NCBI RefSeq assembly: GCF_902713425.1
Contig: NC_081214.1
Span: 10,944,641 to 11,008,640 of the forward strand
Direction of reading: 5' to 3'
Origin: Acipenser ruthenus
Taxonomy: Eukaryota
DNA: 64,000 nucleotides
The number at the start of each line of letters is the position of its first letter. Positions within the stretch are counted from its first letter, which is position 1. The notes beneath the pieces are model-generated. The model worked only from the letters and a program-made list of their open reading frames with translations. It was not told where the DNA came from and made no database searches. Shown here one piece after another: positions 1-56,467 of this stretch. Made by a program: the position numbers and the translations under genes.

Positions 1-371
1 ATGACCATAGCCACGATTCAGTAACATGACCATAGCTACAATTCACTGACATGACCATAGCCACGGTTGAGTAACATGACATTAGCCACGATTGAGTAAC
101 ATGACCATAACCACGATTGAGTAACATGACCATAGCCAAGATTCAGTAACATGACCATAGCCACGATTCAGCAACATGACCATAGCTACGATTCAGTCAC
201 ATGACCATAGCCACGGTTGAGCAACATGACCATAGCCACGATTGAGTGTCATGACCATAGCCACGATTCAGTAACATGACCATAGCCACGATTCAGTCAC
301 ATGACCTTAGCCACGGTTGAGCAACATGACCATAGCCACGATTGAGTATGATGACCATAGCCATGATTCAG
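1..371. repeat. 25-bp tandem satellite, block A (consensus ATGACCATAGCCACGATTCAGTAAC)
   Basis: Direct head-to-tail 25-bp monomers readable in the sequence, with variants ...GGTTGAGTAAC and ...ATTCACTGAC. All copies have the same orientation. Confidence 0.95.
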
Positions 372-655
372 TAACATGATGTGGCAATATGCTCCGCCCC
401 TGTGTGCATTTGTGTGTTATGTGTTGTATGCCTCGTGTGTAAATGTTAGTGTATAGTCATTGGTACACAGGATATAAACAGGTCTGTGTTTCATGTGTAT
501 TTAAAAATGTAGATTTGTATTTAGGCACGAGAGGGGCACAAATCACTTCACGTGCTGCTTAAAATGTAATATGTGAGCACGGGGTTGCACGTAATTAATT
601 CACGTGCTGGGATTCAAGTGAATAATTAATTAGTAATTGAATCCCAGCACAACAG

Positions 656-664
656 TATATATAG
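656..664 (+). promoter_or_regulatory. TATA box inside LTR U3
   Basis: TATATATAG lies about 250 bp upstream of AATAAA and is conserved in all LTR copies (seen as tatatatact/tatatatag on the complementary strand in array copies). Confidence 0.55.
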
Positions 665-711
665 ATGCACGTTTGACTCACTCGTGGGTTGGGTGTTCGT
701 GAGTGGAGAAC

Positions 712-727
712 GGGAGAGAGAGAGAGG

Positions 728-774
<47 letters not shown>

Positions 775-781
775 CAGAAAA
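712..781 (+). repeat. (GA)n/(GAAA)n purine microsatellite inside solo LTR
   Basis: gagagagagagaggagaaagaaagaaag...aaagacagaaaag. Array LTR copies carry a different sequence at this position. Confidence 0.9.
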
Positions 782-911
782 GTTTGTTTTGCTTCACTCA
801 CCGTTTGTCTGTCTGTTTACTGTTTTAGTCCATTTTTGTTCGTCTATTTATTTTGGCCTCAAGTGCTGTGTCCTGTTTTCTGTTCTGTCTGTTTAACCAT
901 TTTACTTTCTT

Positions 912-917
912 AATAAA
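912..917 (+). promoter_or_regulatory. Polyadenylation signal AATAAA (LTR R region)
   Basis: AATAAA lies about 100 bp before the LTR 3' end. Array LTR copies have AATTATTAAATG (ATTAAA variant) at the same place. Confidence 0.5.
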
Positions 918-918
918 C

Positions 919-944
919 GCTGAGTGCTGCCATTTGCACTCAGC
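919..944 (+). other. Conserved stem-loop immediately after the polyA signal
   Basis: The stem is gctgagtgc/gcactcagc, 9 bp, with an 8-nt loop. Array LTR copies keep the stem gctgagc/gctcagc but have a different loop (gcgatcacgt). Confidence 0.5.
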
Positions 945-3900
945 TTCTCATCACCACCGTCTGTGTATTCCTTTCTGGTCTGACGCCACCCACTACGGCC
1001 GTCTTTGTGACACATGACCATAGCCACGATTCAGTAACATGACCATAGCCACGATTCAGCGACAAGACAATAGCCACGATTCACTGACACGAGCATAGCC
1101 ACGATTCACTGACATGACTATAGCCACGATTCATTGACATGACCATAGCCATGATTCAGTAACATGACCATAGCGACAATTCAGCAGCATGACCGTAGCC
1201 ACGATTCAGTAACATGACCATAGCCACGGTTGAGTAAGATGACCACAGTCAGGACTCAATAACATGACCATAGCCACGATTCAGTAACATGACCATAGCC
1301 ACGATTCACTGACATGACCATAGCCAAGGTTAAGTAACATTACCATAGCCATGGTTGTGTAAGAAGACCATAGCCACGATTTAGCAACATGACCATAGCC
1401 ACGATTCAGTAACATGACCATAGCCACGGTTGAGTAACATGACCATAGGCACGATACATTGAGATGACCATAGCCACGATTCATTGACCTGACCATAGCC
1501 ACGATTCACTGACATGACCATAGCCAAGGTTAAGTAACATGACCATAGCCATGGTTGTGTAAGAAGACCATAGCCACGATTTAGCAACATGACCATAGCC
1601 ACGATTCAATAACATGACCATAACCACGGTTGAGCAACATGACCATTGCCACTATGCATTGACATGACCATAGCCACGATTCATTGACATGACCATATCC
1701 ACGATTCAGCAACATGCCCATATCCACGATTCAGTAACATGACCATAGCCACGTTTGAGCAACATGACCATAGCCACGATTGAGTAACATGACAATAGCC
1801 ACGATACATTGAAATGACCATAGCCACGATTCATTGACATAACCATAGCCACAATTCAGTAACATGACTGTAGCCACAGTTGAATAACATGACCATAGGC
1901 ACGGTTGAGTAACATGAACAGAGCCACGGTTCAATAACATGACCATAGCCACTATTCAGTAATATGACCATAGCCACGAATGAGTAACATGACCATAGCC
2001 GTGATTCAGTAACATGACCAAAGCCACGGTTGAGTAACATGACCATATCCACGGTTGAGTAACATGACAATAGCCACGATTCAGCAACATGACCATAGAC
2101 ACGATTCAATAACATGACCATAGCCACGGTTGAGCAACATGACCATTGCCACGATGCATTGACATGACCATAGCCACGATTCATTGACATGACCATATCC
2201 ACGATTCAGCAACATGCCCATATCCATGATTCAGTAACATTACCATAGCCACGTTTGAGCAACATGACCATAGCCACGATTGAGTAACATGACAATAGCC
2301 ACGATACATTGAAATGACAATAGCCACGATTCATTGACATAACCATAGCCACAATTCAGTAACATGACTGTAGCCACAGTTGAATAACATGACCATAGGC
2401 ACGGTTGAGTAACATGACCATAGCCATGATTCAATAACATGACCATAGCCACGAATCAGTACCATGACCATAGCCACAATTCACTGACATGACCATAGCC
2501 ACGGTTGAGTAACATGACATTAGCTACGATTGAGTAACATGACCATAGCCACGATTGAGTAACATGACCATAGCCACGATTCAGTTACATGACCATAGCC
2601 ACGATTCAGCAACATGACCATAGCTATGATTGAGTATCATGACCATAGCCACGATTGAGTATCATGACCATAGCCACGATTCAGTAACATGACTATAGCC
2701 ACGATTCAGTCACATGACCATAGCCACGTTTGAGCAACATGACCATAGCCACAATTGAGTATCATGGCCATAGCCATGATTCAGTAACATGACCATAGCC
2801 ACGATTCAATAACATGACCATAGCCACAATTCACTGATATGACCATAGCCACAGTTGAGTAACATTACCATAGCCATGAATGAGCAACATGACCATAGCC
2901 ACGGTTGAGTAACATGACCATAGCCATGATTGAGCAACATGACCATAGCCACAGTTGAGTAACATGACCATAGCTACAATTCAGTAACATGACCATAGCC
3001 ACGGTTGAGCAACATGACCATAGCCACGATTCAGCGACACGACCATAGTCACGATTCAGTGACATGACCAAAGCCACGGCTGAGTAACATGACCATAACC
3101 ACAATTCACTGATATGACCATAGCCACAGTTGATTAACATTACCCTAGCCATGATTGAGCAACATGACCATAGCCACGGTTGAGTAACAGGACCATAGCC
3201 ACTATTGAGCAACATGACCATAGCCACGGTTGAGTAACATGACCATAACTACGATTCAGTAACATGACCATAGCCACGGTTGAGCAACATGACCATAACC
3301 ACGATTCAATAACATGACCATAGCCACAATTCACTGATATGGCCATAGCCACAGTTGAGTAACATTACCATAGCCATGAATGAGCAACATGACCATAGCC
3401 ACGGTTGAGTAACATGACCATAGCCACGATTGAGCAACATGACCATAGCCACAGTTGAGTAACATGACCATAGCTACAATTCAGTAACATGACCATAGCC
3501 ACGGTTGAGCAACATGACCATAGCCACGATTCAGCGACACGACCATAGTCACGATTCAGTGACATGACCAAAGCCACGGCTGAGTAACATGACCATAACC
3601 ACAATTCACTGATATGACCATAGCCACAGTTGATTAACATTACCCTAGCCATGATTGAGCAACATGACCATAGCCACGGTTGAGTAACATGACCATAGGC
3701 ACGATACATTGAGATGACCATAGCCACGATTCATTGACCTGACCATAGCCACGATTCATTGACCTGACCATAGCCACGATTTACTGACATGACCATAGCC
3801 AAGGTTAAGTAACATGACCATAGCCATGGTTGTGTAAGAAGACCATAGCCACGATTTAGCAACATGACCATAGCCACAATTCAATAACATGACCATAACC

Positions 3901-6843
3901 ACGGTTGAGCAACATGACCATTGCCACGATGCATTGACATGACCATAGCCACGATTCATTGACATGACCATATCCACGATTCAGCAACATGCCCATATCC
4001 ACGATTCAGTAACATGACCATAGCCACGTTTGAGCAACATGACCATAGCCACGATTGAGTAACATGACAATAGCCACGATACATTGAAATGACCATAGCC
4101 ACGATTCATTAACATGACTGTAGCCACAGTTGAATAACATGACTATAGGCACGGTTGAGTAACATGAACATAGCCACGGTTCAATAACATGACCATAGCC
4201 ACTATTCAGTAATATGACCATAGCCACGAATGAGTAACATGACCATAGCCGTGATTCAGTAACATGACCAAAGCCACGGTTGAGTAACATGACCATATCC
4301 ACGGTTGAGTAACATGACAATAGCCACGATTCAGCAACATGACCATAGACACGATTCAATAACATGACCATAGCCACGGTTGAGCAACATGACCATTGCC
4401 ACAATGCATTGACATGACCATAGCCACGATTCATTGACATGACCATATCCACGATTCAGCAACATGCCCATTTCCATGATTCAGTAACATTACCATAGCC
4501 ACGTTTGAGCAACATGACCATAGCCACGATTGAGTAACATGACAATAGCCACGATACATTGAAATGACCATAGCCACGATTCATTGACATAACCATAGCC
4601 ACAATTCAGTAACATGACTGTAGCCACAGTTGAATAACATGACCATAGGCACGGTTGAGTAACATGACCATAGCCACGATTCAATAACATGACCATAGCC
4701 ACGATTCAGTACCATGACCATAGCCACAATTCACTGACATGACCATAGCCATGGTTGAGTAACATGACATTAGCTACGATTGAGTAACATGACCATAGCC
4801 ACGATTGAGTAACATGACCATAGCCACGATTCAGTTACATGACCATAGCCACGATTCAGCAACATGACCATAGCTATGATTGAGTATCATGACCATAGCC
4901 ACGATTGAGTATCATGACCATAGCCACGATTCAGTAACATGACTATAGCCACGATTCAGTCACATGACCATAGCCACGGTTGAGCAACATGACCATAGCC
5001 ACAATTGAGTATCATGGCCATAGCCATGATTCAGTAACATGACCATAGCCACGATTCAATAACATGACCATAGCCACAATTCACTGATATGACCATAGCC
5101 ACAGTTGAGTAACATTACCATAGCCATGAATGAGCAACATGACCATAGCCACGGTTGAGTAACATGACCATAGCCACGATTGAGCAACATGACCATAGCC
5201 ACAGTTGAGTAACATGACCATAGCTACAATTCAGTAACATGACCATAGCCACGGTTGAGCAACATGACCATAGCCACGATTCAGCGACACGACCATAGTC
5301 ACGATTCAGTGACATGACCAAAGCCACGGCTGAGTAACATGACCATAACCACAATTCACTGATATGACCATAGCCACAGTTGATTAACATTACCCTAGCC
5401 ATGATTGAGCAACATGACCATAGCCACGGTTGAGTAACAGGACCATAGCCACTATTGAGCAACATGACCATAGCCACGGTTGAGTAACATGACCATAACT
5501 ACGATTCAGTAACATGACCATAGCCACGGTTGAGCAACATGACCATAACCACGATTCAATAACATGACCATAGCCACAATTCACTGATATGACCATAGCC
5601 ACAGTTGAGTAACATTACCATAGCCATGAATGAGCAACATGACCATAGCCATGGTTGAGTAACAGGACCATAGCCACTATTGAGCAACATGACCATAGCC
5701 ACGGTTGAGTAACATGACCATAACTATGATTCAGTAACATGACCATAGCCACGGTTGAGCAACATGACCATAGCCACGATTCAGCGACACGACCATAGCC
5801 ACGATTCACTGACATGACCAAAGCCATGGTTGAGTAACATGACCACAGTCACGATTCAATAACATGACCATAGCCACGATTCAGCAACATGACCATATCT
5901 ATGATTGAGTATCATGACCATAGCCATGATTGAGTATCATGACCATAGCCACGATTCAGTAACATGACTATAGCCACGATTCAGTCACATGACCATAGCC
6001 ACGGTTGAGCAACATGACCATAGCCACGATTGAGTATCATGACCATAGCCACGATTCAGTCACATGACCATAGCCATGGTTGAGTAACATGACCACAGTC
6101 ACGATTGAGTATCATGACCATAGCCACGATTCAGTAACATGTCCATAGCCACGATTCAGCGACATGACCATAGCCACGATTCACTGACATGACCATAGCC
6201 ACGATTCACTGACATGACCATAGCCACGATTCACTGACATGACCATAGCCACGATTCACTGACATGACCATAGCCACGATTCATTGACATGACCGTAGCC
6301 ATGATTCAGTAACATGACCATAGCGACAATTCAGCAGCATGACCATAGCCACGATTCAGTAACATGACCATTACCACGGTTGAGTAACTTGACCACAGTC
6401 AGGACTCAATAACATGACCATAGCCATGATTCAGTAACATGACCATAGCGACAATTCAGCAGCATGACCATAGCCACGATTCAGTAACATGACCATTGCC
6501 ACGGTTGAGTAACATGACCATAGCCACGATTCAGTAACATGACCATAGCCACGATTCAGCGACATGACCATAGCCACGATTCAGTAACATGACCATAGCT
6601 ACAATTCACTGACATGACCATAGCCACGGTTGAGTAACATGACATTAGCCACGATTGAGTAACATGACCATAACCACGATTGAGTAACATGACCATAGCC
6701 AAGATTCAGTAACATGACCATAGCCACGATTCAGCAACATGACCATAGCCACGATTCAGTCACATGACCATAGCCACGGTTGAGCAACATGACCATAGCC
6801 ACGATTGAGTATGATGACCATAGCCATGATTCAGTAACATGAT

Positions 6844-6889
6844 GTGGCAATATGCTCCGCCCCTGTGTGCATTCGTGTGTTATGTGTTA
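6844..6889 (+). mobile_element. 46-bp stub of the LTR 5' end (TGTGGCAATATGCTCCGCCCCTGTGTGCATTCGTGTGTTATGTGTTA)
   Basis: It matches the first about 46 bp of the solo LTR. The 300 bp upstream of it is near-identical to positions 20-371. Confidence 0.8.
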
Positions 6890-8262
6890 CTAGCCACAGT
6901 TGAGTAACATTACCATAGCCATGAATGAGCAACATGACCATAGCCACGATTGAGCAACATGACCATAGCCACGGTTGAGCAACATGACCATAGCCACGAT
7001 TCAGCGACACTACCATAGTCACGATTCAGTGACATGACCAAAGCCACGGCTGAGTAACATGACCATAACCACATTTCACTGATATGACCATAGCCACAGT
7101 TGATTAACATTACCCTAGCCATGATTGAGCAACATGACCATAGCCACGGTTGAGTAACAGGACCATAGCCACTATTGAGCAACATGACCATAGCCACGGT
7201 TGAGTAACATGACCATAACTACGATTCACTGACATGACCAAAGCCATGGTTGAGTAACATGACCACAGTCACGATTCAATAACATGACCATAGCCACGAT
7301 TCAGCAACATGACCATAGCTATGATTGAGTATCATGACCATAGCCACGATTGAGTATCATGACCATAGCCATGATTCAGTAACATGACTATAGCCACGAT
7401 TCAGTCACATGACCATAGCCACGGTTGAGCAACATGACCATAGCCACGATTGAGTATCATGACCATCGCCACGATTCAGTCACATGACCATAGCCACGGT
7501 TGAGTAACATGACCACAGTCACGATTCAATAACATGACCATAGCCACGATTCAGTAACATGTCCATAGCCACGATTCAGCGACATGACGATAGCCACGAT
7601 TCACTGACATGACCATAGCCACGATTCACTGACATGACCATAGCCACGATTCACTGACATGACCATAGCCACGATTCACTGACATGACCATAGCCACGAT
7701 TCACTGACATGACCATAGCCATGATTCATTGACATGATCGTAGCCATGATTCAGTAACATGACCATAGCGACAATTCAGCAGCATGACCATAGCCATGAT
7801 TCAGTAACATGACCATTGCCACGGTTGAGTAACATGACCACAGTCAGGACTCAATAACATGACCATAGCCACGATTCAGTAACATGACCATAGCCACGAT
7901 TCAGCGACATGACCATAGCCACGATTCAGTAACATGACCATAGCTACAATTTACTGACATGACCAAAGCCACGGTTGAGTAACATGACATTAGCCACGAT
8001 TGAGTAACATGACCATAACCACGATTGAGTAACATGACCATAGCCAAGATTCAGTAACATGACCATAGCCACGATTCAGCAACATGACCATAGCTACGAT
8101 TCAGTCACATGACCATAGCCACGGTTGAGCAACATGACCATAGCCACGATTGAGTGTCATGACCATAGCCACGATTCAGTAACATGACCATAGCCACGGT
8201 TGAGCAACATGACCATAGCCACGATTGAGTATGATGACCATAGCCATGATTCAGTAACATGT

Positions 8263-8301
8263 TGTGGCAATGTGCGCCGCCCCTGTGTGCATTTGTGTGT
8301 A
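8263..8301 (+). mobile_element. 39-bp stub of the LTR 5' end (TGTGGCAATGTGCGCCGCCCCTGTGTGCATTTGTGTGT)
   Basis: It matches the LTR start and has the same upstream satellite context as 372 and 6844. Confidence 0.8.
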
Positions 8302-11300
8302 TATCCACGGTTGAGTAACATGACAATAGCCACGATTCAGCAACATGACCATAGACACGATTCAGTAACATGACCATAGCCACGGTTGAGCAACATGACC
8401 ATTGCCACGATGCATTGACATGACCATAGCCACGATTCATTGACTTGACCATATCCACGATTCAGCAATATGACTATAGCCACGATTCAGTAACATGACC
8501 ATAGCCACGTTTGAGCAACATGACCATAGCCACGATTGAGTAACATGACCATAGCCACGATACATTGAAATGACCATAGCCACGATTCATTGACATAACC
8601 ATAGCCACGATTCAGTAACATGACTGTAGCCACAGTTGAATAATATGACCATAGGCACGGTTGAGTAACATGACCATAGCCACGATTCAATAACATGACC
8701 ATAGCCACGATTCAGTAACATGACCATAGCCACAATTCACTGACATGACCATAGCCACGGTTGAGTAACATGACATTAGCTACGATTGAGTAACATGACC
8801 ATAGCCGCGATTGAGTAACATGACCATAGCCACGATTCAGTTACATGACCATAGCCACGATTCAGCAACATGACCATAGCTATGATTGAGTATCATGACC
8901 ATAGCCACGATTGAGTATCATGACCATAGCCACGATTCAGTAACATGACTATAGCCACGATTCAGTCACATGACCATAGCCACGATTCAGCAACATGACC
9001 ATAGCTATGATTGAGTGTCATGACCATAGCCACGATTGAGCAACATGACCATAGCCACGATTAAGTATCATGACCATAGCCACGATTCAGTAACATGACC
9101 ATAGCCACGATTCAGTAACATGACCATAGCCACGATTCAGCAACATGACCATAGCCACGATTCAGCAACATGACCATAGCTATGATTGAGTGTCATGACC
9201 ATAGCCACGATTGAGTATCATGACCATAGCCACGATTCAGTCACATGACCATAGCCACGATTCAGTCACATGACCATAGCCACGTTTGAGCAACATGACC
9301 ATAGCCACGATACATTGAAATGACCATAGCCACGATTCATTGACATAACCATAGCCACGATTCAGTAACATGACTGTAGCCACAGTTGAATAACATGAAC
9401 ATAGGCATGGTTGAGTAACATGAACATAGCCACGATTCAATAACATTACCATAGCCACGATTCAGTAACATGACCATAGCCACAATTCACTGACATGGCC
9501 ATAGCCAAGGTTGAGTAACATGACATTAGCTACGATTGAGTAACATGACCATAGCCACGATTCAGTTACATGACCATCGCCACGATTCAGCATCATGACC
9601 ATAGCTATGATTGAGTATCATGACCATAGCCACGATTGAGTATCATGACCATAGCCACGATTCAGTAACATGACCATAGCCACGATTCAGCAACATGACC
9701 ATAGCTATGATTGAGTGTCATGACCATAGCCACAATTGAGCAACATGACCATAGCCACGATTCAATAACATGACCATAGCCACAATTCACTGATATGACC
9801 ATAGCCACAGTTGAGTAACATTGCCCTAGCCATGAATGAGCAACATGACCATAGCCACGATTGAGCAACATGACCATAGCCACGATTGAGTATCATGGCC
9901 ATAGTCACGATTGAGTATCATGGCCATAGCCACGATTCAGTAACATGACCATAGCCACGATTCAGTAACATGACTATAGCCACGATTCAGTCACATGACC
10001 ATAGCCACGGTTGAGCAACATGACCATAGCCACGATTGAGTATCATGGCCATAGCCACGATTCAGTAACATGACCATAGCCACGATTCAGTACCATGACC
10101 ATAGCCACGATTCAGTAACTTGACCATAACCACGATTCAATAACATGACCATAGCCACAATTCACTGATATGACCATAGCCACAGTTGAGTAACATTGCC
10201 CTAGCCATGAATGAGCAACATGACCATAGCCACAGTTGAGTAACATGACCATAGCCACGATTGAGCAACATGACCATAGCCACAGTTGAGTAACATGACC
10301 ATAGCTACAATTCAGTAACATGACCATATCCACGGTTGAGCAACATGACCATAGCCACGATTCAGCGACACGACCATAGTCACGATTCAGTGACATGACC
10401 AAAGCCACGGCGGAGTAACATGAACATAACCACAATTCACTGATATGACCATAGCCACAGTTGAGTAACATTACCCTAGCCATGATTGAGTAACATGACC
10501 ATAGCCACGGTTGAGTAACATGACCATAGCCACGATTCAATAACATGACCATAGCCACGGTTGAGTAACATGACCATAACTACGATTCAGTAACATGACC
10601 ATAGCCACGGTTGAGCAACATGACCATAGCCACGATTGAGTAACATGACCATAGGCACGATACATTGAGATGACCATAGCCACGATTCATTGACCTGACC
10701 ATAGCCACGATTCATTAACATTACTGTTGCCACAGTTGAATAACATGACTATAGGCACTGTTGAGTAACATGAACATAGCCACGATTCAATAACATGACC
10801 ATAGCCACGATTCAGTAACATGACCATAGCCACGATTCAGCAACATGACCATAGCCACGATTCAGCAACATGACCATAGCTATGATTGAGTGTCATGACC
10901 ATAGCCACGATTGAGTATCATGACCATAGCCATGATTCAGTAACATGACTATAGCCACGATTCAGTAACATGACCATAGCCACGTTTGAGCAACATGACC
11001 ATAGCCACGATACATTGAAATGACCATAGCCACGATTCATTGACATAACCATAGCCACGATTCAGTAACATGACTGTAGCCACAGTTGAATAACATGACC
11101 ATAGGCACGGTTGAGTAACATGACCATAGCCACGATTCAATAACATGACCATAGCCACGGTTGAGCAACATGACCATTGCCACGATGCATTGACATGACC
11201 ATAGCCACAATTCATTGACATGACCATATCCACGATTCAGCAACATGCCCATATCCACGATTCAGTAACATGACCATAGCCACGTTTGAGCAACATGACC

Positions 11301-11977
11301 ATAGCCACGAAACATTGAAATGACCATAGCCACGATTCATTGACATAACCATAGCCACGATTCAGTAACATGACTGTAGCGACAGTTGAATAACATGACC
11401 ATAGGCACGGTTGAGTAACATGACCATTGCCACGATTCAATAACATGACCATAGTCACGATTCAGTAACATGACCATAGCCACAATTCACTGACATGACC
11501 ATAGCCACGGTTGAGTAACATGACATTAGCTACGATTGAGTAACATGACCATAGCCACGATGGAGTAACATGACCGTATCCACGGTTGAGTAACATGACA
11601 ATAGCCACAATTCAGCAACATGACCATAGACACGATTCAGTAACATGACCATAGCCACGGTTGAGCAACATGACCATTGCCACGATGCATTGACATGACC
11701 ATAGCCACGATTCATTGACATGACCATATCCACGATTCAGCAACATGCCCATATCCACGATTCAGTAACATGACCATAGCCACGTTTGAGCAACATTACC
11801 ATAGCCACGAAACATTGAAATGACCATAGCCACGATTCATTGACATAACCATAGCCACGATTCAGTAACATGACTGTAGCCACAGTTGAATAACATGACC
11901 ATAGCCACGATTCAGTTACATGACCATAGCCACGATTCAGCAACATGACCATAGCTATGATTGAGTATCATGACCAG

Positions 11978-14900
11978 CGGCTCTCCAATTGGTCCCTGGA
12001 ACCTCCCCAGCGCACGCACAATCCCCAGTGATCCCGCGTGGGGTCCCAGCTGCACGCCAAACGGTCCCTGGCACCTCACCAGCACGGGCACTGGGCCCAG
12101 CTAACCCGTGCAGGGTTCCAGCGGCTCGCGAAATGGTCCCTGGCCCCTCACCAGCGCGCGGACGTGCACCAGCGACCCCACGTGGAGTCCCAACGGCTCG
12201 CCAAACCGTCCCTGGCACTTCACCGACACGCGCACGGGCCCCAGCAACCCCGCGCAAGGCCCCAGCGGCACGCCAAACGGTCCCTGGCACCTCCCCAGCA
12301 CGCGCACGGGGCCAGCAAACCCCGTGCGGGTTCCCAGCGAATCGCCAAACGGTCACTGGCATCTCCCCAGCATGCTCACGGGCTCCAGCGACCCCGTGCA
12401 GGGTCCTTGCGGCTCGTCAAATGGTCCCTGGTACCTTCCCAGCGTGCGCACTTTGTCCAACGACCGCACATGAGGTCCCAGCGGCTCGCCAAATGGTCCC
12501 TGGCACCTCCCCAGCGTGCACACGTGGCCCACCGACCCCGTGCAGGTTCCCAGTGACTTGCCAAATGGTAACTTGCACCTCTCCAGCAAACGCATGGGCC
12601 CCAGAGACACAGCGTGTGGTCCCAGCAGCTCGCCAAATGGTCGCTGGCATCTACCCAGTACACGGACAGGGCCCAGCAACCACGCGTGGGGACCCAGCGG
12701 CTCGCAAATGGTCCCTGGCACATCCCCAGCTCGCGCACGGACCCCAGCGACTTTGCGCGGGATCCAAGCAGCTCGCCAAATGCTCCCTGCCACCTCCCCA
12801 GCGCACGCACGGGTCCCAGAGACCCAGTGCGGGATCCAAGCAGCTCGCCAAATGGTCCCTGGCCCCTCCGCAAAAGAGCACAGGGCCCAGCGACCCCGAG
12901 CTTGGTCCTAGTGACTCGACAAATGAACCCTGACACCTCCCCAGTGCGTGCACAAGCCCCAGCGACCCCGCGTGGGGTCCCAGCGGCTCACCAAAATTTC
13001 CCTGGCACCTCCCCGGCGTGTGCACTGGGCCCAGCGATCTCACGCGACGTCCCAGCTGCACGCCAAATGGTCCCTGGCAGTTCCCCAGCGCACGCACGGT
13101 ACCCAGCGAACCCAGGCGAGGTCCCAGCGGCTCGCCAAATGCTCAATGGCACATCCCCAGTACGGGCACGGGCATCAGCGACCACGCGCGGGGTTACAGC
13201 GGCTCGCCAAACAGTCCCTGATACCTCCCCAGCGCGCGCACGGGCCGCAGCGACCCCGCACTTGGACTCAGCGGCTCGGAAAACAGTCCTTGGCACCTTC
13301 GCAGCACGAGCACTGGGCCCAGTGACCCCGCATGGGGCACCAGCGGCATGCCAAACGGTCCCTGGCACCTCCCCAGCACACGCACGGGACCCAGCGACCC
13401 CGTGCATGGTCCCTGAGGCTCGCCAAACGTTCCCTGGCACCTCATCAGCACACGCATGGGCCCCAGCAAACCCACGCGGGGACCCAGCGGCTCGCCAAAT
13501 ACTCCCTGGCACCTCCCCAGCGCGCGCATGTGCACCAGCGACCCCACACGAGGTCCCAACGGCTGGCCAAATGGTAACTGTCACCTCCCCAGCAAACGCA
13601 TGGGCCCCAGAGACACAGCGTGTGGTCCCAGCAGCTCGCCAAATGGTCACTGGCATCTACCCAGTGCACGGACAGGGCCCAGCAACCACGCGTGGGGACC
13701 CAGCGGCTCGCAAATGGTCCCTGGCACATCCCCAGCTCGCGCACGGACCCCAGCGACTTTGCGCGGGATCCAAGCAGCTCGCCAAATGCTCCCTGCCACC
13801 TCCCCAGCGCACGCACGGGTCCCAGAGACCCAGTGCGGGATCCAAGCAGCTCGCCAAATGGTCCCTGGCCCCTCAGCAAAAGAGCACAGGGCCCAGCGAC
13901 CCCGAGCTTGGTCCTAGTGACTCGACAAATGAACCCTGACACCTCCCCAGTGGGTGCACAAGCCCCAGCGACCCCGCGTGGGGTCCCAGCGGCTCACCAA
14001 AATTTCCCTGGCACCTCCCCGGCGTGTGCACTGGGCCCAGCGAACCCAGACGAGGTCCCAGCGGCTGGCCAAACCGACCCTGGCGCCTCCCCAGCTCGCG
14101 CTCGTGCCCCAGCGAACCCACACAGGGTCCCAGCTGCTCGCCAAATGGTCCGTTGCACCTCCCCAGCACGCGCACTGGGCCCAGCGACCCCACGCGGGGT
14201 CTCAGCGGCACGCCAAACGGTCCCTGGCACATTCCCAGCACGCACATTGGCTCCCACGACCACGCGTGGGGTCCCAGTGGCTCGCCAAATTGTCCCTGGC
14301 CCCTCCCCAGCACGCGCACTGGGCCTAGCGACCCCAGGCGGGGTCCTAGCGGCTCGCCAAACTATCCCTGTCACCTCCCCAGCGACTCCGCGTGGGGTCC
14401 CAGCGGCTCGCCAAAATGTCCCTGGCAGCTCCCCAGCACGCGCACTGGGCCCAGCGACCATGTGCGGGGTCCCCGCGGCTCGCAAATGATCCCTGGCACA
14501 TCCGCAACGCGCGCCCGGGCCCCAGCAACTTCGCACGGGGTCCCAGCGGCTCGCCATATGGTCCATGGCACCTTCCCAGCGAGCGCACGGGGCCCAGCGA
14601 CCCCAGGCGGGGTCCCAGCGGCTCGCCTAATGGTCCCTGGCACGTCCTCAGCGCGAGCACGGGCCCCAGAGACCCCGCGCGGGGTCCGAGCAGCTAGCCG
14701 AATGGTCCCTGGCACCTCCCCAGCAGGGGCACTGGGCCCTGCTAACCAGCGCGGGGTCCCAGCGGCACGTCAAACGGTCCCTGGCACCTCCCCAGCAAGC
14801 GCAAGGGCCCCAGCGACTTCGCGCGAGGTCCCAGCGTCTTGCCAAATGGTCCCTGGCACCTCCCCAGCGCGCACTGGGCCCAGCGACCACACGCGGGGTA

Positions 14901-17900
14901 TGAGCGGTTCGCCAAATATTCCCTGGCACCTCCCCAGCACGCGCACTGGGCCCAGCGACCATGCGCGGTGTCCCAGCGGCTCGCAAATGGTCCCTGGCAC
15001 ATCCGCAGCGCGCGCACTGGCCCCAGCAACTTCGCACGGGGTCCCAGCAGCTCACCATATGGTCCATGGCCACTCCCCAGCGAGCGCACGGGGCCCAGCG
15101 ACCCCAGACGGGGTCCCAGCGGCTCGTCTAATGGTCCCTGGCACATCCCCAGCTCGCGCACGGACCCCAGCGACTTTGCGCGGGATCCAAGCAGCTCGCC
15201 AAATGCTCCCTGCCACCTCCCCAGCGCACGCACGGGTCCCAGAGACCCAGTGCAGGATCCAAGCAGCTCGCCAAATGGTCCCTGGCCCCTCCGCAAAAGA
15301 GCACAGGGCCGAGCGACCCCGAGCTTGGTCCTAGTGACTCGACAAATGAACCCTGACACCTCCCCAGTGCGTGCACAAGCCCCAGCGACCCCGCGTGGGG
15401 TCCCAGCGGCTCACCAAAATTTCCCTGGCACCTCCCCGGCGTGTGCACTGGGCCCAGCGATCTCACGCGACGTCCCAGCTGCACGCCAAATGGTCCCTGG
15501 CATTTCCCCAGCGCACGCACGGTACCCAGCGAACCCAGGCGAGGTCCCAGCGGCTCGCCAAATGCTCAATGGCACATCCCCAGTACGGGCACGGGCATCA
15601 GCGACCACGCGCGGGGTTACAGCGGCTCGCCAAACAGTCCCTGATACCTCCCCAGCGCGCGCACGGGCCGCAGCGACTCCGCACTTGGACTCAGCGGCTC
15701 GGAAAACAGTCCTTGGCACCTTCGCAGCACGAGCACTGGGCCCAGCGACCCCGCACGGGGCACCAGCGGCACGCCAAACGTTCCCTGGCACCTCATCAGC
15801 ACACGCATGGGCCCCAGCAAACCCGCGCGGGGACCCAGCGGCTCGCCAAATACTCCCTTGCACCTCCCCAGCGCGTGCATGTGCACCAGCGACCCCACAC
15901 GAGGTCCCAACGGCTGGCCAAACCGACCCTGGCGCCTCCCCAGCTCGCGCACGTGCCCCAGCGAACCCACACAGGGTCCCAGCTGCTCGCCAAATGGTCC
16001 GTTGCACCTCCCCAGCACGCGCACTGGGCCCAGCGACCCCACGCGGGGTCTCAGCGGCACGCCAAACGGTCCCTGGCACATTCCCAGGTCGCACACGGGC
16101 CCCAGCGAACCTGTGCAGGGTCCCAGCGGCTCGCCAAATGGTCCCTTGCACCTCCCCAGCATGCACACAAGGCCCAGCGAACCCACGCGGGGTCCCAGCA
16201 GCATGCCAAACGGTCCCTGGCATTTCCCCAACATGCGCACAACGCGCAAGCTTCCAGCGGCACTCCAAACGGTGTCTGGCACCTCCCCAGCACGCGCATG
16301 GTGCCCAGCGACCCCGCGCGGAGTCCCAGCGGTGCCAAACTCTCCCTGACACCTCCCCAGAGCACGCACAGACACTAGCGACGCCACACGGGGACACAGC
16401 AGATCGCCAAATGGTCCCTGGCACCTCCCCAGCACGTGCACAAGGGCCAGCGACCACGAACTGGATCCTAGCGGCTCGCCAAAAAGTTCCTGGCACCTCC
16501 CCAGGACGCGTACTGGGCCCAACGACCCTGCGCAGGGTACCAGCGGCTCACCAAATGGTCCCTCACACCTCCCCAGCATGCGCACGGGCCCCAGCGACCC
16601 TGTGCGGGGTCCCTGCGGCTCGCCAAATAGTCCCTGGTACCTCCCCAGCGCGCACACGTGCACCAGCGACCCCACGTGGAGTCCCAATGGCTCGCCAAAC
16701 CGTCCCTGGCGCCTCCCCAGCACGCGCACGGACACTAGCGACCCTACGCGGGGACACAGCGGATCACCAAACCATCCCTGGTGCCTCCAAAGCACGCAGA
16801 TGGGCCCCAGCGACCCCGCACGAGGTCCCACCAACTCGTCACACGGTCCCTGGCACCTCCCAGCGAGCGCACAGGGCCCAGCAAACCCGTGTGGGGTCCT
16901 AGCGACTCGCCAAAAGGTCTTTGGCACCTACCCATTGCACGCACAGGGCCCAGCAACCACGCGTGGGGACCCAGCGGCTCGCAAATGGTCCCTGGCACAT
17001 CCCCAGCGTGCGCACGGACCCCAGCGACTTTGCGCGGGGTCCAAGCAGCTCGCCACATGCTCCCTGCCACCTCCCCAGCGCACGCACGGGTCCCAGAGAC
17101 CCAGTGCGGGATCCAAGCAGCTCGCCAAATGGTCCCTGGCCCCTCCGCAAAAGAGCACAGGGCCCAGCGACCCCACGCGTGGTCCCAGCGGCTCGCCAAA
17201 ATGTCCCTGGCACATCCCCAGTGCACGCACTGGGCCCAGCGACCGCACGCGGTCCCAACATCTTGCAAAATGGTCCCTGGCACCTCCCCTAGCGTGCACA
17301 GGGCCCCAGCAACCCCGCGCAGGATCCCAGCGGCTCGCCAAACAGTCCCTGGCACCTCCCCAACACGCGCACGGAACCCAGCGACCCCGCGCGGGGTCCA
17401 AGCGGTTCGCCAAATGATTCCTGGCACCTCCCCAGCACACGCACGGGGCCCAGCGAACCCACACGGGGTCCCAGCAGCATGCCAAACGGTCCCTGGCATT
17501 TCCCCAACATGCGCACAGGGCCCAGCGACAATGCGCGAGGTTCCAGCGGCACTCCAAACGGTGTCTGGCACCTCCCCAGCACGCGCATGGTGCCCAGCGA
17601 CCCCGCGCGGAGTCCCAGCGGCGCGCCAAACTGTCCCTGACACCTCCCCAGAGCATGCACAGACACTATCGACCCCACACGGGGACACAAAAGATCGCCA
17701 AATCGTCCCTGGCACCTCCCCAACACGCGCACAAGGCCCAGCGACCACGAACTGGGTCCTAGAGGCTCGCCAAATGGTCCCTGGAACCTCCCCAGCGCAC
17801 GCACAATCCCCAGCGATCCCGCATGGGGTCCCAGCTGCACGCCAAACGGTCCCTGGCACCTCACCAGCACGGGCACTGGGCCCAGCTAACCCGTGCAGGG

Positions 17901-20900
17901 TCCCAGCGGCAAGCAAAACAGTCCCTGGCACCTGCCCAGCGCGAGCACAGGCCCCAGAGACCCCGCACGAGGTCCCAACGGCTCGCCAAAATGCTCCCTG
18001 GCACCTTCCCAGCGCGTGCACAAGCCCCAGCGACCCCTCGTGGGGTCCCAGCTGCTCGCCAAAGTGTCCCTGGCACCTCCCAAGCGCGCGCATGGGTCCC
18101 AGCGACTTCACCAAGGGTCCCAGTGGCTCGCCAAAGTGTCCCTGGCCCCTCCCCAGCGCGTGCAGGGAGCCCAGCAACCCCGCGAGGGGTCCCAGCGGCT
18201 CGCCAACATGTCCCTGGCACCTCCCCAGCACGCGCACTGTGCCCAGCAACCTCGTGCCGGGTCCCAGCGGCCCGCCAAACGGTCTCTGGCAGCTCCCCAG
18301 CTCGTGCACGGTGCCTAGCGACCCCATGCGGAGTTCCAGCGGCTCGCCAAATCGTCCCTGGCGCCTCCCCAGCGAGCGCATGGGCCCCAACAATCCCGCG
18401 AGGGGTCCCAGCTGCTTGACAAATGGTCCCTGGCACCACCCCAGCACACGCACGGGGTTCCAGGGCATGCTGCATGCTGGGGAGGTGCGTGTCCCAGCGG
18501 CTCGCCAAATGTTCCCTAGCACCTCTCCAGCACGCGCACGGACATTGGCGACCCCACGCGGGGTCTCAGCGGCTCACCAAATGGTCCCTGGCACCTCCCA
18601 GTAGTGCGCCTGGTCCCCAGAAACTTCGCCTGTGATCCAAGCGGCTTGCCAAACTGTCCCTGGCACATCCCAGCGCGAGCACTGGAACCAGCGACCTTGC
18701 GCGGGGTCCCACAGGCTCGCCAAAATGTCCCTGGCACCTCCCTAGCACGCACGGGCACCGGCGACCGCGTACGTGGTCTGAGATGCTCGCCAAATGCTCC
18801 CTGACAACTCCCCAGCACGTGCACTGGGTCCAGCGACGCTGCGCGGGGTCCCAGCGGCTCGCAAAATGGTCCCTGACACCTCACTAGCGCGCACGTGCAC
18901 CAGCGACCACGTCCGGGGTCCAAACGGCTCTCCAAATGGTCCCTGGCTCCTCCCCAGCATGCGCAATGGGCCCAGCGACCCCGCGCGGGGCTCCCAGCGG
19001 CACGCCACACGGTCCATGGCACCTCCCAAGCATGCACACGGTCCCCAGCGAACCCGCGCGGGGTACCAGTAGCTAGCCAAATGGTACATGGCACATCCCG
19101 AGCATGCGCACTGGGCCCAGCGACCCTGTGCGGTGTCCCTGCGGCTCGCCAAATAGTCCCTGGCACCTCCCCAGCACGCCCACGGGGCCCAACAATCCGG
19201 CGTGGGATCCCAGCGGCTCGCCAAACGGTGCCTCGCACCTCCCCAGTACGGGCACGGGCCCCAGCGAACCCGTACGGGGTCACAGCGACTCGCCAAATGG
19301 TCCCTGGCACCTCACCAGCACGCGCACAAGGCCAGCGAACCCACGCGGGGTCCCAACAGCACACCAAACGGTCCCTGGAATCTCCCCAGCACACGCACTG
19401 GGCCCAGCGACCACGCGCAGGGTCCTAGCGGCTCGCCAAACAGTCCCTGGCACCTCCCCAGCATGCACACGGGCCCCAGCCACCCTGTGCGGGGTTCCTG
19501 CGGCTCGACAAATAGTCCCTGGTACCTCCCCATCGCGCGCACATCCACCAACGAACCCCACGCGGAGTCCCAACGGCTCGCCAAACCGTTCCTGGCTCCT
19601 CACCAGCGAGCGCACGGGCCCCAGCGACCCTGCACGGGATCCCTGCTGCTAGCCAAATGGTCCCTGGCACCTCACCAGCACGCACACCGGGCCCAGCGAC
19701 CCCGCACGGGGTCCCAGCGGCTCACCAAACAGTCCCTGGCACCTCCCCAGCACGGGCACGGGACCCAGCGACCCCGCACGGGGTCCCAGCGGCTCACCAA
19801 ATGCTCCCTGGCACCTCCCCAGCTCGCGCACGTGCGCCACCGACCCCACACGAGTTCCCAACGGCTAGCAAAACCGTCCCTGGCGCCTCACCAGCGAGCG
19901 CATGGGCCCCAGCAATTCCGCACGGGGTCCCAGCTGCTTGGCAAATGGTCCCTGGCACCACCCCAGCACGTGCACGGGCCCCAGCGACCCCGTGCGGGGT
20001 CCCAGAGGCTCGCCAAATGGCCCCTAGCACCTCCCCAGCACGCGCACGGACACTAGCGACCCCACGAGGGGTCTCAGTGGCTCGGCAAATGGTCCCTGGC
20101 ACCTCCCCAGAGTGCGCACGGGCCCCAGAAACTTCGCCCGTGGTCCAAGCGGCTTGCCAAACTGTACCTGGCACATCCCCAGCGCGCGCACTGGAACCAG
20201 CGACCCCGCGCAGGATCCCAGCGGCACGCCAAATGATCCCTGGCACCTCCCCAGAGTGCGCACGGGCCCCAGAAACTTCACCCGTGGTCCAAGCGGCTTG
20301 CCAAACTGTCCCTGGCACCTCCCCAGCACGCTCACAGGGTCCAGCAACCATGCGTGGGGGTCCCAACGTCTCGCAAATGGTCCCTGGCCCCTCCCCAGCG
20401 TGCGAAGGGGGCCAAGCGACCCCGCGCGGGGTCCCAGCGGCTCGCCAAATGATATATGGCACCTCCCCAACACGCGCACTGGGCCCAGCGATCCGGCGTG
20501 GGGTCCCAGCGGCTCGCCAGACTGTGCCTCGCACCTCCCCAGGTCGAGCACGGGCCCCAGCGAACCTGTGCAGGGTCCCAGCGGCTCGCCAAATGGTCCC
20601 TTGCACCTCCCCAGCACGCACACAAGGCCCAGCGAACCCACGCGGGGTCCCAGCAGCATGCCAAACGGTCCCTGGCATTTCCCTAGCACAGGCACAGGAC
20701 CCAGCGACCCCGCAGGGGTCCCAGCGGCTCACCAAATGCTCCCTGGCACCTCCCCAGCTCGCGCACGTGCGCCACCGACCCCACACGAGTTCCCAACGGC
20801 TCGCAAAACATGTGCACAGGGCCCAGCGAAAACGCGCGAGGTTCCAGCGGCACTCCAAACGGTGTCTGGCACCTCCCCAGCACGTGCATGGTGCCCAGCG

Positions 20901-23900
20901 ACCCCGCGCGGAATTCCAGCGGCGCGCCAAACTGTCCCTGACACCTCCCCAGAGCACGCACAGACACTAGCGATCCCACACGGGGACACAGCAGATCGCC
21001 AAATGGTCCCTGGCACCTCCCCAGCACGTGCACTGGGCCCAGCGACCACGAACTGGGTACTAGCGGCTCGCCAAAAAGTCCCTGGCACCTCCCCAGCACG
21101 CGCACTGGGCCCAGCGACCCCGCGCAGGGTACCAGCGGCTCGCCAAACGGTCCCTCGTACCTCCCCAGCATGCACACGGGCCCCAGCCACCCTGTGTGGG
21201 GTCCCTGCGGCTCGCCAAATAGTCCCTGGTACCTCCCCATCGCGCGCACGTCCACCAGCGAACCCCACGCGGAGTCCCAGCGGCTCGCCAAACCGTTCCT
21301 GGCGCCTCACCAGCGAGCGCACGGGCCCCAGCGACCCTGCACGGGATCCCTGCTGCTAGCCAAATGGTCCCTGGCACCTCACCAGCACACACACCAGGCC
21401 CAGCGACCCATCGCGGTGTCCCAGCGGCTCACCAAACAGTCCCTGGCACCTCCCCAGCAGGCGTACTGTGCCCAGCAACCTCGTGCCGGGTCCCAGCGGC
21501 CCGCCAAACGGTCTCTGGCAGCTCCCAAGCATGCATACGGTCCCCAGCGAACCCGCGCGGGGTACCAGTAGCTAGCCAAATGGTACATGGCACATCCCGA
21601 GCATGCGCACTGGGCCCAGCGACCCTGTGCGGTGTCCCTGCGGCTCGCCAAATAGTCCCTGGCACCTCCCCAGCACGCCCACGGGGCCCAACAATCCGGC
21701 GTGGGATCCCAGCGGCTCGCCAAACGGTGCCTCGCACCTCCCCAGTACGGGCACGGGCCCCAGCGAACCCGTACGGGGTCACAGCGACTCGCCAAATGGT
21801 CCCTGGCACCTCACCAGCACGCGCACAAGGTCAGCGAACCCACGCGGGGTCCCAACAGCACACCAAACGGTCCCTGGAATCTCCCCAGCACACGCACTGG
21901 GCCCAGCGACCACGCGCAGGGTCCTAGCGGCTCGCCAAACAGTCCCTGGCACCTCCCCAGCATGCACACGGGCCCCAGCCACCCTGTGCGGGGTCCCTGC
22001 GGCTCGACAAATAGTCCCTGGTACCTCCCCATCGCGCGCACATCCACCAACGAACCCCACGCGGAGTCCCAACGGCTCGCCAAACCGTTCCTGGCTCCTC
22101 ACCAGCGAGCGCACGGGCCCCAGCGACCCTGCACGGGATCCCTGCTGCTAGCCAAATGGTCCCTGGCACCTCACCAGCACGCACACCGGGCCCAGCGACC
22201 CCGCACGGGGTCCCAGCGGCTCACCAAACAGTCCCTGGCACCTCCCCAGCACGGGCACGGGACCCAGCGACCCCGCACGGGGTCCCAGCGGCTCACCAAA
22301 TGCTCCCTGGCACCTCCCCAGCTCGCGCACGTGCGCCACCGACCCCACACGAGTTCCCAACGGCTCGCAAAACCGTCCCTGGCGCCTCACCAGCGAGCGC
22401 ATGGGTCCCAGCAATCCCACACGGGGTCCCAGCTGCTTTGCAAATGGTCCCTGGCACCACCCCAGCACGCGCACGGGCCCAGCGACCACGCTCAGGGGTC
22501 CCAGCGGCACGACAAACGGTCGCTGGCACCTCACCAGCACGCGCACAAGGCCCAGCGAACCCACGCGGGGTCCCAACAGCACACCAAACGGTCCCTGGAA
22601 TCTCCCCAGCACGCGCACTGGGCCCAGCGACCACGCGCAGGGTCCTAGCGGCTCGCCAAACAGTCCCTGGCACCTCCCCAGCACGGGCACGGGACCCAGC
22701 GACACTGCGTGGGGTCCCTGAGGCTCTCCAAATACTCCCTGGCACCTCCCCAGCGTGCGCACGTACGCCACCGACCCCACACGAGTTCACAACGGCTCGC
22801 CAAAGCGACCCTGGCGCCTACCCAGCGCGCGCATGTGCCCCAGCGACCTCGCGCAGGGTCCCAGCGGTTCACCAAATCGTCCCTGGTACATCCCCATCGC
22901 AGGCACGGGCCCCAGCAACCCTACGCAGGGTCCCAGCGGCTCGCCAAACGGTCCCTGGCACCTCCCAGTAGTGCGCCTGGTCCCCAGAAACTTCGCCCGT
23001 GGTCCAAGCGGCTTGCCAAACTGTCCCTGGCACATCCCCAGCACAGGGTTCAGCAACCATGCGCAGGGGGTCCCAGCATCTCGCAAATGGTCCCTGGCCC
23101 CTCCCCAGTGTGCGAAGGGGGCCAGGCGACACCGCGCGGGGTCCCTGCGGCTCGCCAAATGGTCCCTGGCACCTATACAGCAAGCACACAGAGCCCAGCA
23201 ACCACACTTGTGTTCCCAGCGGCTCGCAAATGGTCCCTGGCACATCCCCAGCTCGCGAACGGGCCCTAGCGACTTTATGCAGGGTCCCAGCGGCTCGCCA
23301 AATGGTCCCTAGTCCCGCCACAGCACGCACATGTGCCCCAGCGACCTCGCACAGGGTCCCAGCGGCTTGCAATTGGTCCCTGGCACCTCCCCAGCGCGCT
23401 CACAGGGTCCAGCAACCATGCGCGGGGGTCCCAACGTCTCGCAAATAGTCCCTGGCCCCTCCCCAGCGTGCGAAGGGGGCCATGCGACCCCGCGTGGGGT
23501 CCCAGCGGCTCGCCAAGTGATATATGGCACCTCCCCAGCACGCGCACTGGGCCCAGCGATCCGGCGTGGGGTCCCAGCGGCTCGCCAGACTGTGCCTCGC
23601 ACCTCCCCAGGTCGAGCACGGGCCCCAGCGAACCTGTGCAGGGTCCCAGCGGCTCGCCAAATGGTCCCTTGCACCTCCCCAGCACGCACACAAGGCCCAG
23701 CGAACCCACGCGGGGTCCCAGCAGCATGCCAAACGGTCCCTGGCATTTCCCCAGCACGGGCACAGGACCCAGCGACCCCGCACGGGGTCCCAGCGGCTCA
23801 CCAAATGCTCCCTGGCACCTCCCCAGCTCGCGCACGTGCGCCACCGACCCCACACGAGTTCCCAACGGCTCGCAAAACCGACCCTGGCACCTCCCCAGCG

Positions 23901-26598: not shown

Positions 26599-27001
26599 AG
26601 CCCTCGCATTCACCCTCTGCTGGTGGACATGGCGGAGGCAGAGGCAGCTCCTGCTGCTCTGCTCCTGCCGGTGGAGGTGGCAGAGGCAGAGGCAGCTCCT
26701 GCTGCTCTGCTCTTGCCGGTGGAGGTGGCGGAGGCAGAGTCAGCTCCTGCTGCTCTGCTCCTGCCGGTGGAGGAGGCAGAGGCAGCTCCTGCTGCTCTGC
26801 TCCTGCCGGTGAAGGTGGCGGAAGCAGAGGCAGCTCCTGCTCCTCTGCTCCTGGCAGTGGTGGAGGCAGAGGCAGCTCCTGCTGCTCTGCTCCTAGTGGA
26901 GGAAGCGGTGGAGGTGGGAGCAGCGTGTAGTCTCCTGGCGATGGAGGTGGGAACAGCGTGTAGTCTCCTGACGATGGAGGTGGGAGCAGCGTGTAGTCTC
27001 C

Positions 27002-27544: not shown

Positions 27545-27635
27545 TTTATTTATTTATATATATATTTTTTTGTAATCAATTTTTTTTTCCCCAAAAAAAT
27601 GCGGTTCCTGCTCTGGCCTGAGTCCAGGAGGAGCT

Positions 27636-27656
27636 GTCGTCCCGATTCTAACACCA
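27636..27656 (-). promoter_or_regulatory. Putative primer-binding site (TGGTGTTAGAATCGGGACGAC) adjacent to the LTR 3' end, unit 1 only
   Basis: It starts with TGG immediately after ...GTGACACA. The same position in units 2-5 reads TAGTGTCAGAACCGGGACGAC, with TGG changed to TAG. I could not assign a tRNA from memory. Confidence 0.35.
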
Positions 27657-28220: not shown

Positions 28221-28350
28221 TATACCCCCCCCCCTTGTGCGCAGCACACATGGCCTCAACGGCCACCTCCCCCCTTAAAAACCCAGCAGTCCAGGACAAA
28301 GTCTCGGGCTGGGAAGGGAGGCTTCAGTGGGCCCATGGCTGGCAATGCTG

Positions 28351-30697: not shown

Positions 30698-30810
30698 TTT
30701 ATTTATTTATATATAGATTTTTTTTGTAATCAATTTTTTTTTCCCCAAAAAAATGCGGTTCCTGCTCTGGCCTGAGTCCTGGAGGCGCTGTCGTCCCGGT
30801 TCTGACACTA

Positions 30811-56420: not shown

Positions 56421-56467
56421 TTTACAACCGAGAGGAGGCCATTCAGCCCATCTTGCTCGTTTGGTTG

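Follow-up and report, generated by a model that had tools for sequence, protein, structure and literature searches.

Solo long terminal repeats (LTRs) are formed by LTR-LTR recombination within a single element, in LTR retrotransposons as well as in endogenous retroviruses (ERVs). In the CEN180 centromeres of Arabidopsis, five gaps occupied by ATHILA elements or solo LTRs are duplicated at distances of 8.9-538 kb, and the authors explained this duplication either by the process that also gives rise to higher-order repeats or by gene conversion (Naish et al. 2021, bioRxiv 10.1101/2021.05.30.446350). Composite units of a transposable element (TE) and satellite sequence have been spread by unequal crossing over in human T2T-CHM13 (Hoyt et al., bioRxiv 10.1101/2021.07.12.451456), and tandem arrays derived from TEs are among the subjects treated by McGurk and Barbash (bioRxiv 10.1101/158386). 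Here we describe a related arrangement in a stretch of 64,000 nucleotides of the Acipenser ruthenus genome (NCBI RefSeq assembly GCF_902713425.1, contig NC_081214.1, positions 10,944,641 to 11,008,640, forward strand), called the window in the following, in which an array of a 25-bp satellite carries one full solo LTR and two short LTR stubs. The junction between satellite and LTR arose once, by one insertion with a target-site duplication, and was then copied. It is very probable that the single insertion was followed by copying of the junction through array turnover and by truncation through non-homologous joins that run out of the LTR.

The window is a landscape of eukaryotic repeats. The 25-bp satellite, with the consensus CCATAGCCACGATTCAGTAACATGA, forms three arrays in it, at 1-11976, 42708-56376 and 59295-61294, and the first of these (array 1) hosts the LTR and both stubs. 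Cutting array 1 into monomers by fixed-register 25-bp segmentation gave runs of 15, 233, 55 and 147 monomers with zero slip. A scan for sequence unlike the monomer returned only the LTR and the two stubs as non-monomer stretches across 12 kb. The full LTR and its surroundings consist of the following features.

5-379, plus strand: block B, 15 in-register monomers that end directly before the full LTR; the start of the window falls within B, and the best matches of B are the two blocks upstream of the stubs

375-379, plus strand: left target-site duplication CATGA, a direct reading of the sequence

380-1012, plus strand: solo LTR of 633 bp; both flanks are satellite and no internal region is attached

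1013-1017, plus strand: right target-site duplication CATGA, 5 bp beyond the 25-bp register, which restarts at 1018

1018-1292, plus strand: block A', the right flank of the full LTR; paralogous, at about 94%, to block A, which precedes B in the stub copies at 6118-6442 and 7538-7862

The copy at 380-1012 is a solo LTR, with an intact target-site duplication and no internal sequence. It starts with TGTGGCAAT and ends with GTCTTTGTGACA; its termini, TGTGGC... at 380 and ...GTGACA at 1012, give the form TGT...ACA (5'-TG...CA-3') and are shared by other copies of the family. The LTR interrupts one 25-bp monomer. On the left, the satellite ends in ...GTAACATGA at 379, and the right flank reads from 1013 onwards CATGA followed by CCATAGCC. 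Since array 1 is otherwise free of slips, the 5 extra bp at the right edge of the LTR show that the 5-bp target-site duplication is genuine, and a phase artefact of the periodicity is thereby ruled out. The 3' end of the family reads ...GTGACACA, which makes the LTR boundary ambiguous by 2 nt; an LTR ending at ...ACACA would leave a duplication of 3 bp. The original prediction for this locus had proposed a solo LTR of 643 bp within one monomer, flanked by a duplication of 4-5 bp. The insertion and the duplication are borne out, the latter as the 5-bp CATGA at 375-379 and 1013-1017, while the length has to be corrected to 633 bp (380-1012).

The two stubs, each preceded by a copy of block B, lie further downstream in the same array.

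6568-6842, plus strand: block B copy upstream of stub 1, 274/275 identical to 5-179 plus 280-379

6843-6888, plus strand: stub 1, 46 nt corresponding to LTR nt 1-46, 45/46 identical, BLAST E 7e-17, with T to C at LTR nt 32

7913-8262, plus strand: block B copy upstream of stub 2, matching block B of the full copy at 346/350 positions

8263-8300, plus strand: stub 2, 38 nt corresponding to LTR nt 1-38, 36/38 identical, E 2e-11, with substitutions at nt 10 and 14

The satellite-LTR junction, ...CAGTAACATG(A/T) followed by TGTGGCAAT, is found at the identical nucleotide and in the same orientation at 379/380, 6842/6843 and 8262/8263. The A/T difference reflects the last satellite base before stub 2 (8262), which is altered from A to T. 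Neither stub has an LTR 3' end or a target-site duplication. Behind each of them the satellite resumes in the middle of a monomer, at monomer position 4 after stub 1 and at position 3 after stub 2, and two odd bases, 'AC', of unclear origin stand between stub 1 and the satellite. Both the existence of the stubs and these mid-monomer continuations agree with what had been predicted (46 bp at 6844 and 39 bp at 8263), apart from shifts of 1 nt each: stub 1 starts at 6843 and stub 2 measures 38 nt.

The satellite upstream of the three junctions was aligned monomer by monomer. Block B of the full copy and that of stub 1 are identical at 274 of 275 positions with one 4-monomer indel, and the comparison of the full copy with stub 2 gave 346 of 350 identical positions with one 1-monomer indel. 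Between the two stubs, the upstream satellite is identical at 883 of 900 positions and differs otherwise only by indels of whole monomers (1, 4 and 3 monomers). As a null distribution we used all in-phase, non-overlapping 275-bp pairs within array 1, whose identities average 82.4%, with a 99th percentile of 90.9%; an identity of at least 99% occurs in 0.06% of the pairs. The LTR-free paralogues of block B, at 4693-5042, 2443-2792 and 8699-8973, show 95.1%, 94.9% and 95.6%, respectively. Additionally, the monomer variants CATTAGCCACGATTGAGTAACATGA, CCATAACCACGATTGAGTAACATGA and CCATAGCCACGATTGAGTATGATGA are found only in the three LTR-bearing blocks among the approximately 1,100 monomers of the window. 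The upstream contexts, which the original prediction had described as near-identical, are thus 98.9-99.6% identical, compared with 82% for random stretches and about 95% for the LTR-free paralogues. The outcome that had been named as refuting the prediction, contexts resembling each other no more than random stretches do, therefore did not occur. Taken together, the position of the junction at the same nucleotide, the upstream identity above the null distribution and the exclusive variants establish a single origin. No further copy of the junction was observed within the window, and a junction scan of metagenome contigs returned no match.

Recent segmental duplications have made array 1 a mosaic. 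In a diagonal scan, for example, 1832-3476 and 4082-5726 matched at 98.8%, and 34% of the 275-bp blocks in the array have a partner at 98.5% or more. The stubs belong to such duplicated blocks, and the segments that matter for their history are the following.

5093-6888, plus strand: unit 1, blocks X...Z-A-B followed by stub 1, collinear with unit 2

6889-8262, plus strand: satellite part of unit 2, consisting of 'AC', block X joined at monomer position 4, and then Z-A-B

8301-8973, plus strand: right flank of stub 2, block Y followed by B', joined at monomer position 3

2443-2842, plus strand: LTR-free 'empty-site' paralogue, consisting of B' (2443-2792, about 95% to B), two monomers and then block X; a second copy is at 4693-5092

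Units 1 and 2 (5093-6888 and 6888-8300) are collinear head to tail over 51 of 51 alignable monomers, at 98.1% and with whole-monomer indels only. The homology of the units starts exactly at the join between stub 1 and satellite; to the left of 5093 lie B' and two monomers, which are unrelated to the stub. Because of this exact start, it seems, as far as the sequence can tell, at least as likely that the stub 1 join is a tandem duplication breakpoint, with LTR nt 46 next to block X as the novel joint, as that it results from a later deletion. Of these readings, a tandem duplication is the simplest. For stub 2, the flank Y-B' (8301-8973) is collinear with 2045-2717, located 1,032 bp downstream of the full LTR, over about 675 bp at about 97.5%. 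Compared with the full copy, stub 2 therefore looks like the product of a deletion of about 1.63 kb, which would comprise LTR nt 39-633 plus 1013-2044. Stub 1 keeps LTR nt 39-46, which are missing in stub 2, so it is not derived from stub 2. Furthermore, with the full copy situated left of the two stubs, an earlier and larger duplication that separated two LTR-bearing loci is required.

These observations can be assembled into the following course of events. An LTR retroelement integrated once into one 25-bp monomer, creating the 5-bp CATGA duplication, and persists as the solo LTR at 380-1012; it may have reached the solo state before any copying took place. Out-of-register exchange between higher-order-repeat paralogues would then have duplicated several kilobases of the array together with the junction, giving a second LTR copy about 6-8 kb off. 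Presumably this larger duplication was a homologous, out-of-register event; no scar of it is visible. In the distal copy, two non-homologous joins would have followed, both within the TG-rich first 46 nt of the LTR. The first would have connected LTR nt 46 to a block X monomer about 1.4-1.8 kb upstream and produced the arrangement (X...A-B-LTR1-46)(X...A-B-LTR...), and with it stub 1. The second would have connected, in the remaining copy, LTR nt 38 to block Y, whereby the rest of the LTR and about 1 kb of satellite (A'+C) would have been deleted and stub 2 left behind. We regard this specific path, a duplication breakpoint followed by a deletion, as tentative and rate its chance as slightly below even. 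The order proposed originally, namely insertion, amplification and then internal deletion of the LTR, holds with respect to the insertion, the copied junction and the truncated daughter copies. The deletions are not internal, since both truncations run out of the LTR into the satellite.

Several observations weigh against a duplication breakpoint followed by a deletion. If breakage were uniform, two breakpoints only 8 nt apart would be expected with P of about 0.005-0.03, so that a hotspot is required, and folding of the DNA at the LTR 5' end predicted no stable hairpin (z = -0.49). The mapping of the stub 2 deletion is not unique, as Y-B' is equally similar to 4295-4967 and to 2045-2717. The divergence of Y-B' amounts to 2.5%, compared with 1.1% for the B blocks. 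At LTR nt 10 and 14, the full copy and stub 1 carry A and T, stub 2 carries G and G, and the family consensus is G and C. These one or two sites hint at a closer relationship of stub 1 to the full copy than to stub 2, its tandem neighbour, whereas the proposed order predicts the reverse; alternatively, the stub 2 changes are repair errors. Finally, block X lies only two monomers past the insertion-equivalent site in the LTR-free paralogues (B'-2 monomers-X), and for a duplication breakpoint this would be a coincidence of 7-9%. Its proximity to this site favours a local deletion of about 640 bp as the origin of stub 1, provided that the ancestral right flank was '2 monomers-X'. The actual right flank of the full copy is A' instead, and an empty-site reconstruction of B next to A' versus B next to '2 monomers-X' found LTR-free paralogues of both arrangements.

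The last point leads to the order of events as proposed originally, which we consider less likely: homologous unequal exchange would have raised a block with the complete LTR to three copies, and two independent deletions would have followed, one from LTR nt 47 into X and one from nt 39 into Y. Homologous out-of-register exchange is clearly common in array 1. The order B'-2 monomers-X in the LTR-free paralogues would also be accounted for, because a deletion of about 640 bp in the context of B next to '2 monomers-X' yields the observed order of B, stub 1 and X. However, with A' as the right flank of the full copy, one more rearrangement has to be assumed, which is unseen and would lie precisely where the LTR ends on the right. 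Moreover, three events are needed, compared with two if the stub 1 join is a duplication breakpoint, and the start of unit homology exactly at this join speaks against separate amplification and deletion. In a nested variant, which is possible, the 46-nt stub formed once and was duplicated via exchange between X copies, after which the second stub was trimmed to 38 nt; no breakpoint hotspot is then needed.

The anatomy of the joins bears on how the truncations occurred. Both joins are blunt and lie in the middle of a monomer. No microhomology of 3 nt or more was observed at either of them, with only 0-1 nt shared, and microhomology-mediated routes, that is, microhomology-mediated end joining (MMEJ) or template switching, are thus unsupported. 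The joins fit blunt end-joining better than MMEJ or template switching. The two LTR breakpoints are 8 nt apart and fall into a TG-rich tract that is prone to indels across the family. Their proximity could be explained by a hotspot, by a nested origin or by repair synthesis that was aborted. A stall site caused by a hairpin or other secondary structure at the LTR 5' end was also considered and is unsupported by the predicted DNA fold given above.

The stub 2 copy carries private substitutions at 8262 (A to T), 8272 (A to G) and 8276 (T to G), all within 15 bp and 25-39 bp from the join. These are three private substitutions in the 39 bp before the join versus two in the preceding 349 bp (Poisson P 0.0016-0.04, depending on the background rate). 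Although the numbers are small, this clustering may reflect error-prone repair of a break. Alternatively, the changes may stem from conversion by another LTR copy with G at LTR nt 10.

These features would also be expected if the stubs came from abortive copying during break repair, by synthesis-dependent strand annealing or gene conversion. An LTR-free paralogue would have been repaired off a B-LTR template, synthesis would have halted 38-46 nt into the LTR and the end would have been joined. Such events would account for stubs that are short and similar in length, for blunt joins with filler bases and clustered substitutions nearby, and for the position of block X 53 bp from the equivalent site in the LTR-free paralogues. 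Gene conversion has also been proposed for the duplicated ATHILA elements of the Arabidopsis centromeres. On the other hand, abortive copying by itself leaves the 1.4-kb head-to-tail collinearity of units 1 and 2 unexplained. In addition, the sequence before block Y in LTR-free copies is not B-like, so that no obvious recipient site for stub 2 exists. We therefore consider this explanation improbable.

It is still less probable that the stubs are assembly artefacts, arising from chimeric joins or from wrongly collapsed reads. Misassembly is a known risk in satellite arrays, but each stub copy has substitutions and monomer indels of its own, the right flanks are distinct, and the 1.4-kb units differ at 1.9% of sites; these differences fit real, diverged paralogues better than duplicated reads. 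That this LTR family inserted three times independently, wholly or in part, at one and the same satellite position is effectively ruled out: a CATGA target is present in every monomer and a site-specific integrase could in principle hit it repeatedly, but the stubs without LTR 3' end or target-site duplication, joined in mid-monomer, are not integration products, their upstream blocks are 99% identical with private monomer variants, and about 1,100 other monomers in the window are without such a junction.

Returning to the joins of a duplication breakpoint followed by a deletion, one could speculate that the TG-rich first 46 or so nucleotides of the LTR are a recurrent breakpoint site that seeds higher-order-repeat boundaries, and that a composite satellite is beginning to form, with the X...A-B-stub units as its first two copies. 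We think that this is unlikely. If it were true, the clustered substitutions by the joins would record the error-prone break repair that drives restructuring of the array.

The same LTR family was found elsewhere in the window. A BLAST comparison detected seven further copies that have the same 5' terminus and unrelated flanks, among them the following.

27659-28220, minus strand: macro-repeat LTR copy

30813-31384, minus strand: macro-repeat LTR copy

33873-34444, minus strand: macro-repeat LTR copy

36936-37507, minus strand: macro-repeat LTR copy

39995-40566, minus strand: macro-repeat LTR copy

63687-64000, plus strand: LTR copy about 89% identical, cut by the window end, with a third unrelated flank

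The five minus-strand copies, one per unit of a macro-repeat, are 86-91% identical to the solo LTR and define the LTR ends. In a multiple alignment of the family the 5' terminus TGTGGCAAT is invariant, and the sequence upstream of it is satellite, a purine tract or unique sequence. Each macro-repeat LTR is preceded by a purine tract, AAGGGGGGGGGG(TATA), and followed by CA-TGGTGTTAGAATCGGGAC, which resemble a polypurine tract and a TGG-initiated primer-binding site (PBS), respectively, in their canonical places. The 5' terminus shared in unrelated flanks and the setting between a purine tract and a PBS-like sequence provide independent support for the LTR identity. At the motif level, the solo LTR contains a TATA motif, TATATATAG, at about 657-665 and the polyadenylation-signal motif AATAAA at 913-918, in the order expected for U3 and R; both are conserved in the family copies, with ATTAAA in those of the macro-repeat. 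The 3' end of the solo LTR is conserved and U5-like. An (AGAA)13 tract at 728-780 inside the solo LTR is missing from the macro-repeat copies, which are the sole other copies covering that part of the LTR, and is a private expansion within the putative R/U5 of the solo LTR. To the left of the copy at 63687-64000, the sequence is unique and contains no satellite.

The macro-repeat itself consists of about 3.06 kb, repeated five times in tandem at 26617-42636. Each unit contains one LTR and about 2.5 kb of minisatellite-rich sequence with long open reading frames (ORFs). No Pfam match was found for these internal ORFs; one of them has a knuckle-like CX2CX3HX4C motif, read by eye. An LTR-type reverse transcriptase or integrase was not detected in the 64-kb window, and the LTR element may be non-autonomous. 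The macro-repeat looks like a non-autonomous LTR element that was amplified as an LTR-internal-LTR-internal macrosatellite.

Between array 1 and the macro-repeat lies a GC-rich 72-bp satellite (11974-26579) with higher-order periods of 144 and 216 bp. It adjoins the 25-bp array without a spacer at about 11974-11976 and decays toward 26579, where the macro-repeat starts. The second 25-bp array, 42708-56376, has no stretch of 200 bp in common with array 1 (1-11976) at 97% identity or more. Unlike the perfectly phased array 1, it contains many 1-3-bp indels, which recur with a period of about 2.1 kb (47683, 49791 and 51649). The lack of long, highly identical common stretches and the recurring indels indicate that this array is a distinct higher-order-repeat lineage of the same 25-bp satellite, apparently older than array 1. 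A literature search for the sequence of the 25-bp satellite found no publication.

Within the second 25-bp array there is an insertion of about 245 bp at 44013-44258 with a tRNA-like head (GGTTCAATCCCCGG), a body with CCCTGGATAAGGGCGTCTGCTAAG and an (AAAT)n tail. This insertion resembles a short interspersed nuclear element (SINE) derived from a tRNA, of a type known from ray-finned fishes. ARAGORN found no tRNA in the head at 44013. A long interspersed nuclear element (LINE), a non-LTR retrotransposon, lies at the edge of the 25-bp array (56385-59294, minus strand). A second, shorter copy (61316-62618, minus strand) comes after the next satellite block of 2 kb, and the LINE may have been duplicated together with the satellite. 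Domains of an apurinic-type endonuclease (Exo_endo_phos, E 2.5e-16) and a reverse transcriptase (RVT_1, E 2.9e-39) were identified, and the tail is an 8-bp repeat, (AACATAAG)n on the plus strand. We take this LINE with its 8-bp tail to be CR1-like. Where the second LINE copy is interrupted, at 62618, a start resembling that of the LTR, TGTGGCAAAATGG, is found.

For the 25-bp array, the LTR junction is a unique tag in otherwise anonymous sequence, and it reveals that blocks of kilobase scale were duplicated after the insertion. The junction was copied along with such blocks, and it can be used as a marker of array growth after the insertion, as suggested originally. The marker is a passive one for array turnover, and nothing suggests a function. 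It also shows that non-homologous joins, besides in-register unequal exchange, reshape the array. A relative timescale can be read from the divergences: about 5% separates B from the LTR-free B', the insertion followed, and the copies of the junction differ by 0.4-1.9%. The locus thus serves as a worked example and a marker for this satellite and adds no new kind of element or mechanism.

In comparison with the known routes of solo LTR formation, the copy at 380-1012 matches fully, with a complete LTR, an intact target-site duplication and no internal sequence. The stubs, in contrast, are 5' fragments left by illegitimate recombination and not solo LTRs. As in composite or macrosatellite repeats, a TE fragment is part of a repeating unit, since the X...A-B-stub unit of about 1.4-1.8 kb occurs twice in tandem. 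Unlike in these repeats, only two units exist here and the TE part is a remnant of 38-46 nt, so that the arrangement is at most a nascent composite; the clearer composite case in the same window is the LTR-containing macro-repeat (3.06 kb, five units, 26617-42636). The closest likeness is to ATHILA in CEN180, where an LTR element or solo LTR in a satellite is likewise duplicated on the same chromosome with its satellite context. Here, however, an animal genome is concerned and its satellite has a 25-bp monomer, the copies are only 1.4 and 6.5 kb apart, and non-homologous joins have left 38-46 nt of the LTR in the daughter copies; one of these joins would itself be the duplication boundary. Copying of LTRs after integration into satellite arrays is thus already documented, and the present case is a further instance of it, brought about by ordinary satellite turnover. 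What it modestly adds is a probable duplication boundary within the LTR that is resolved to the single nucleotide.

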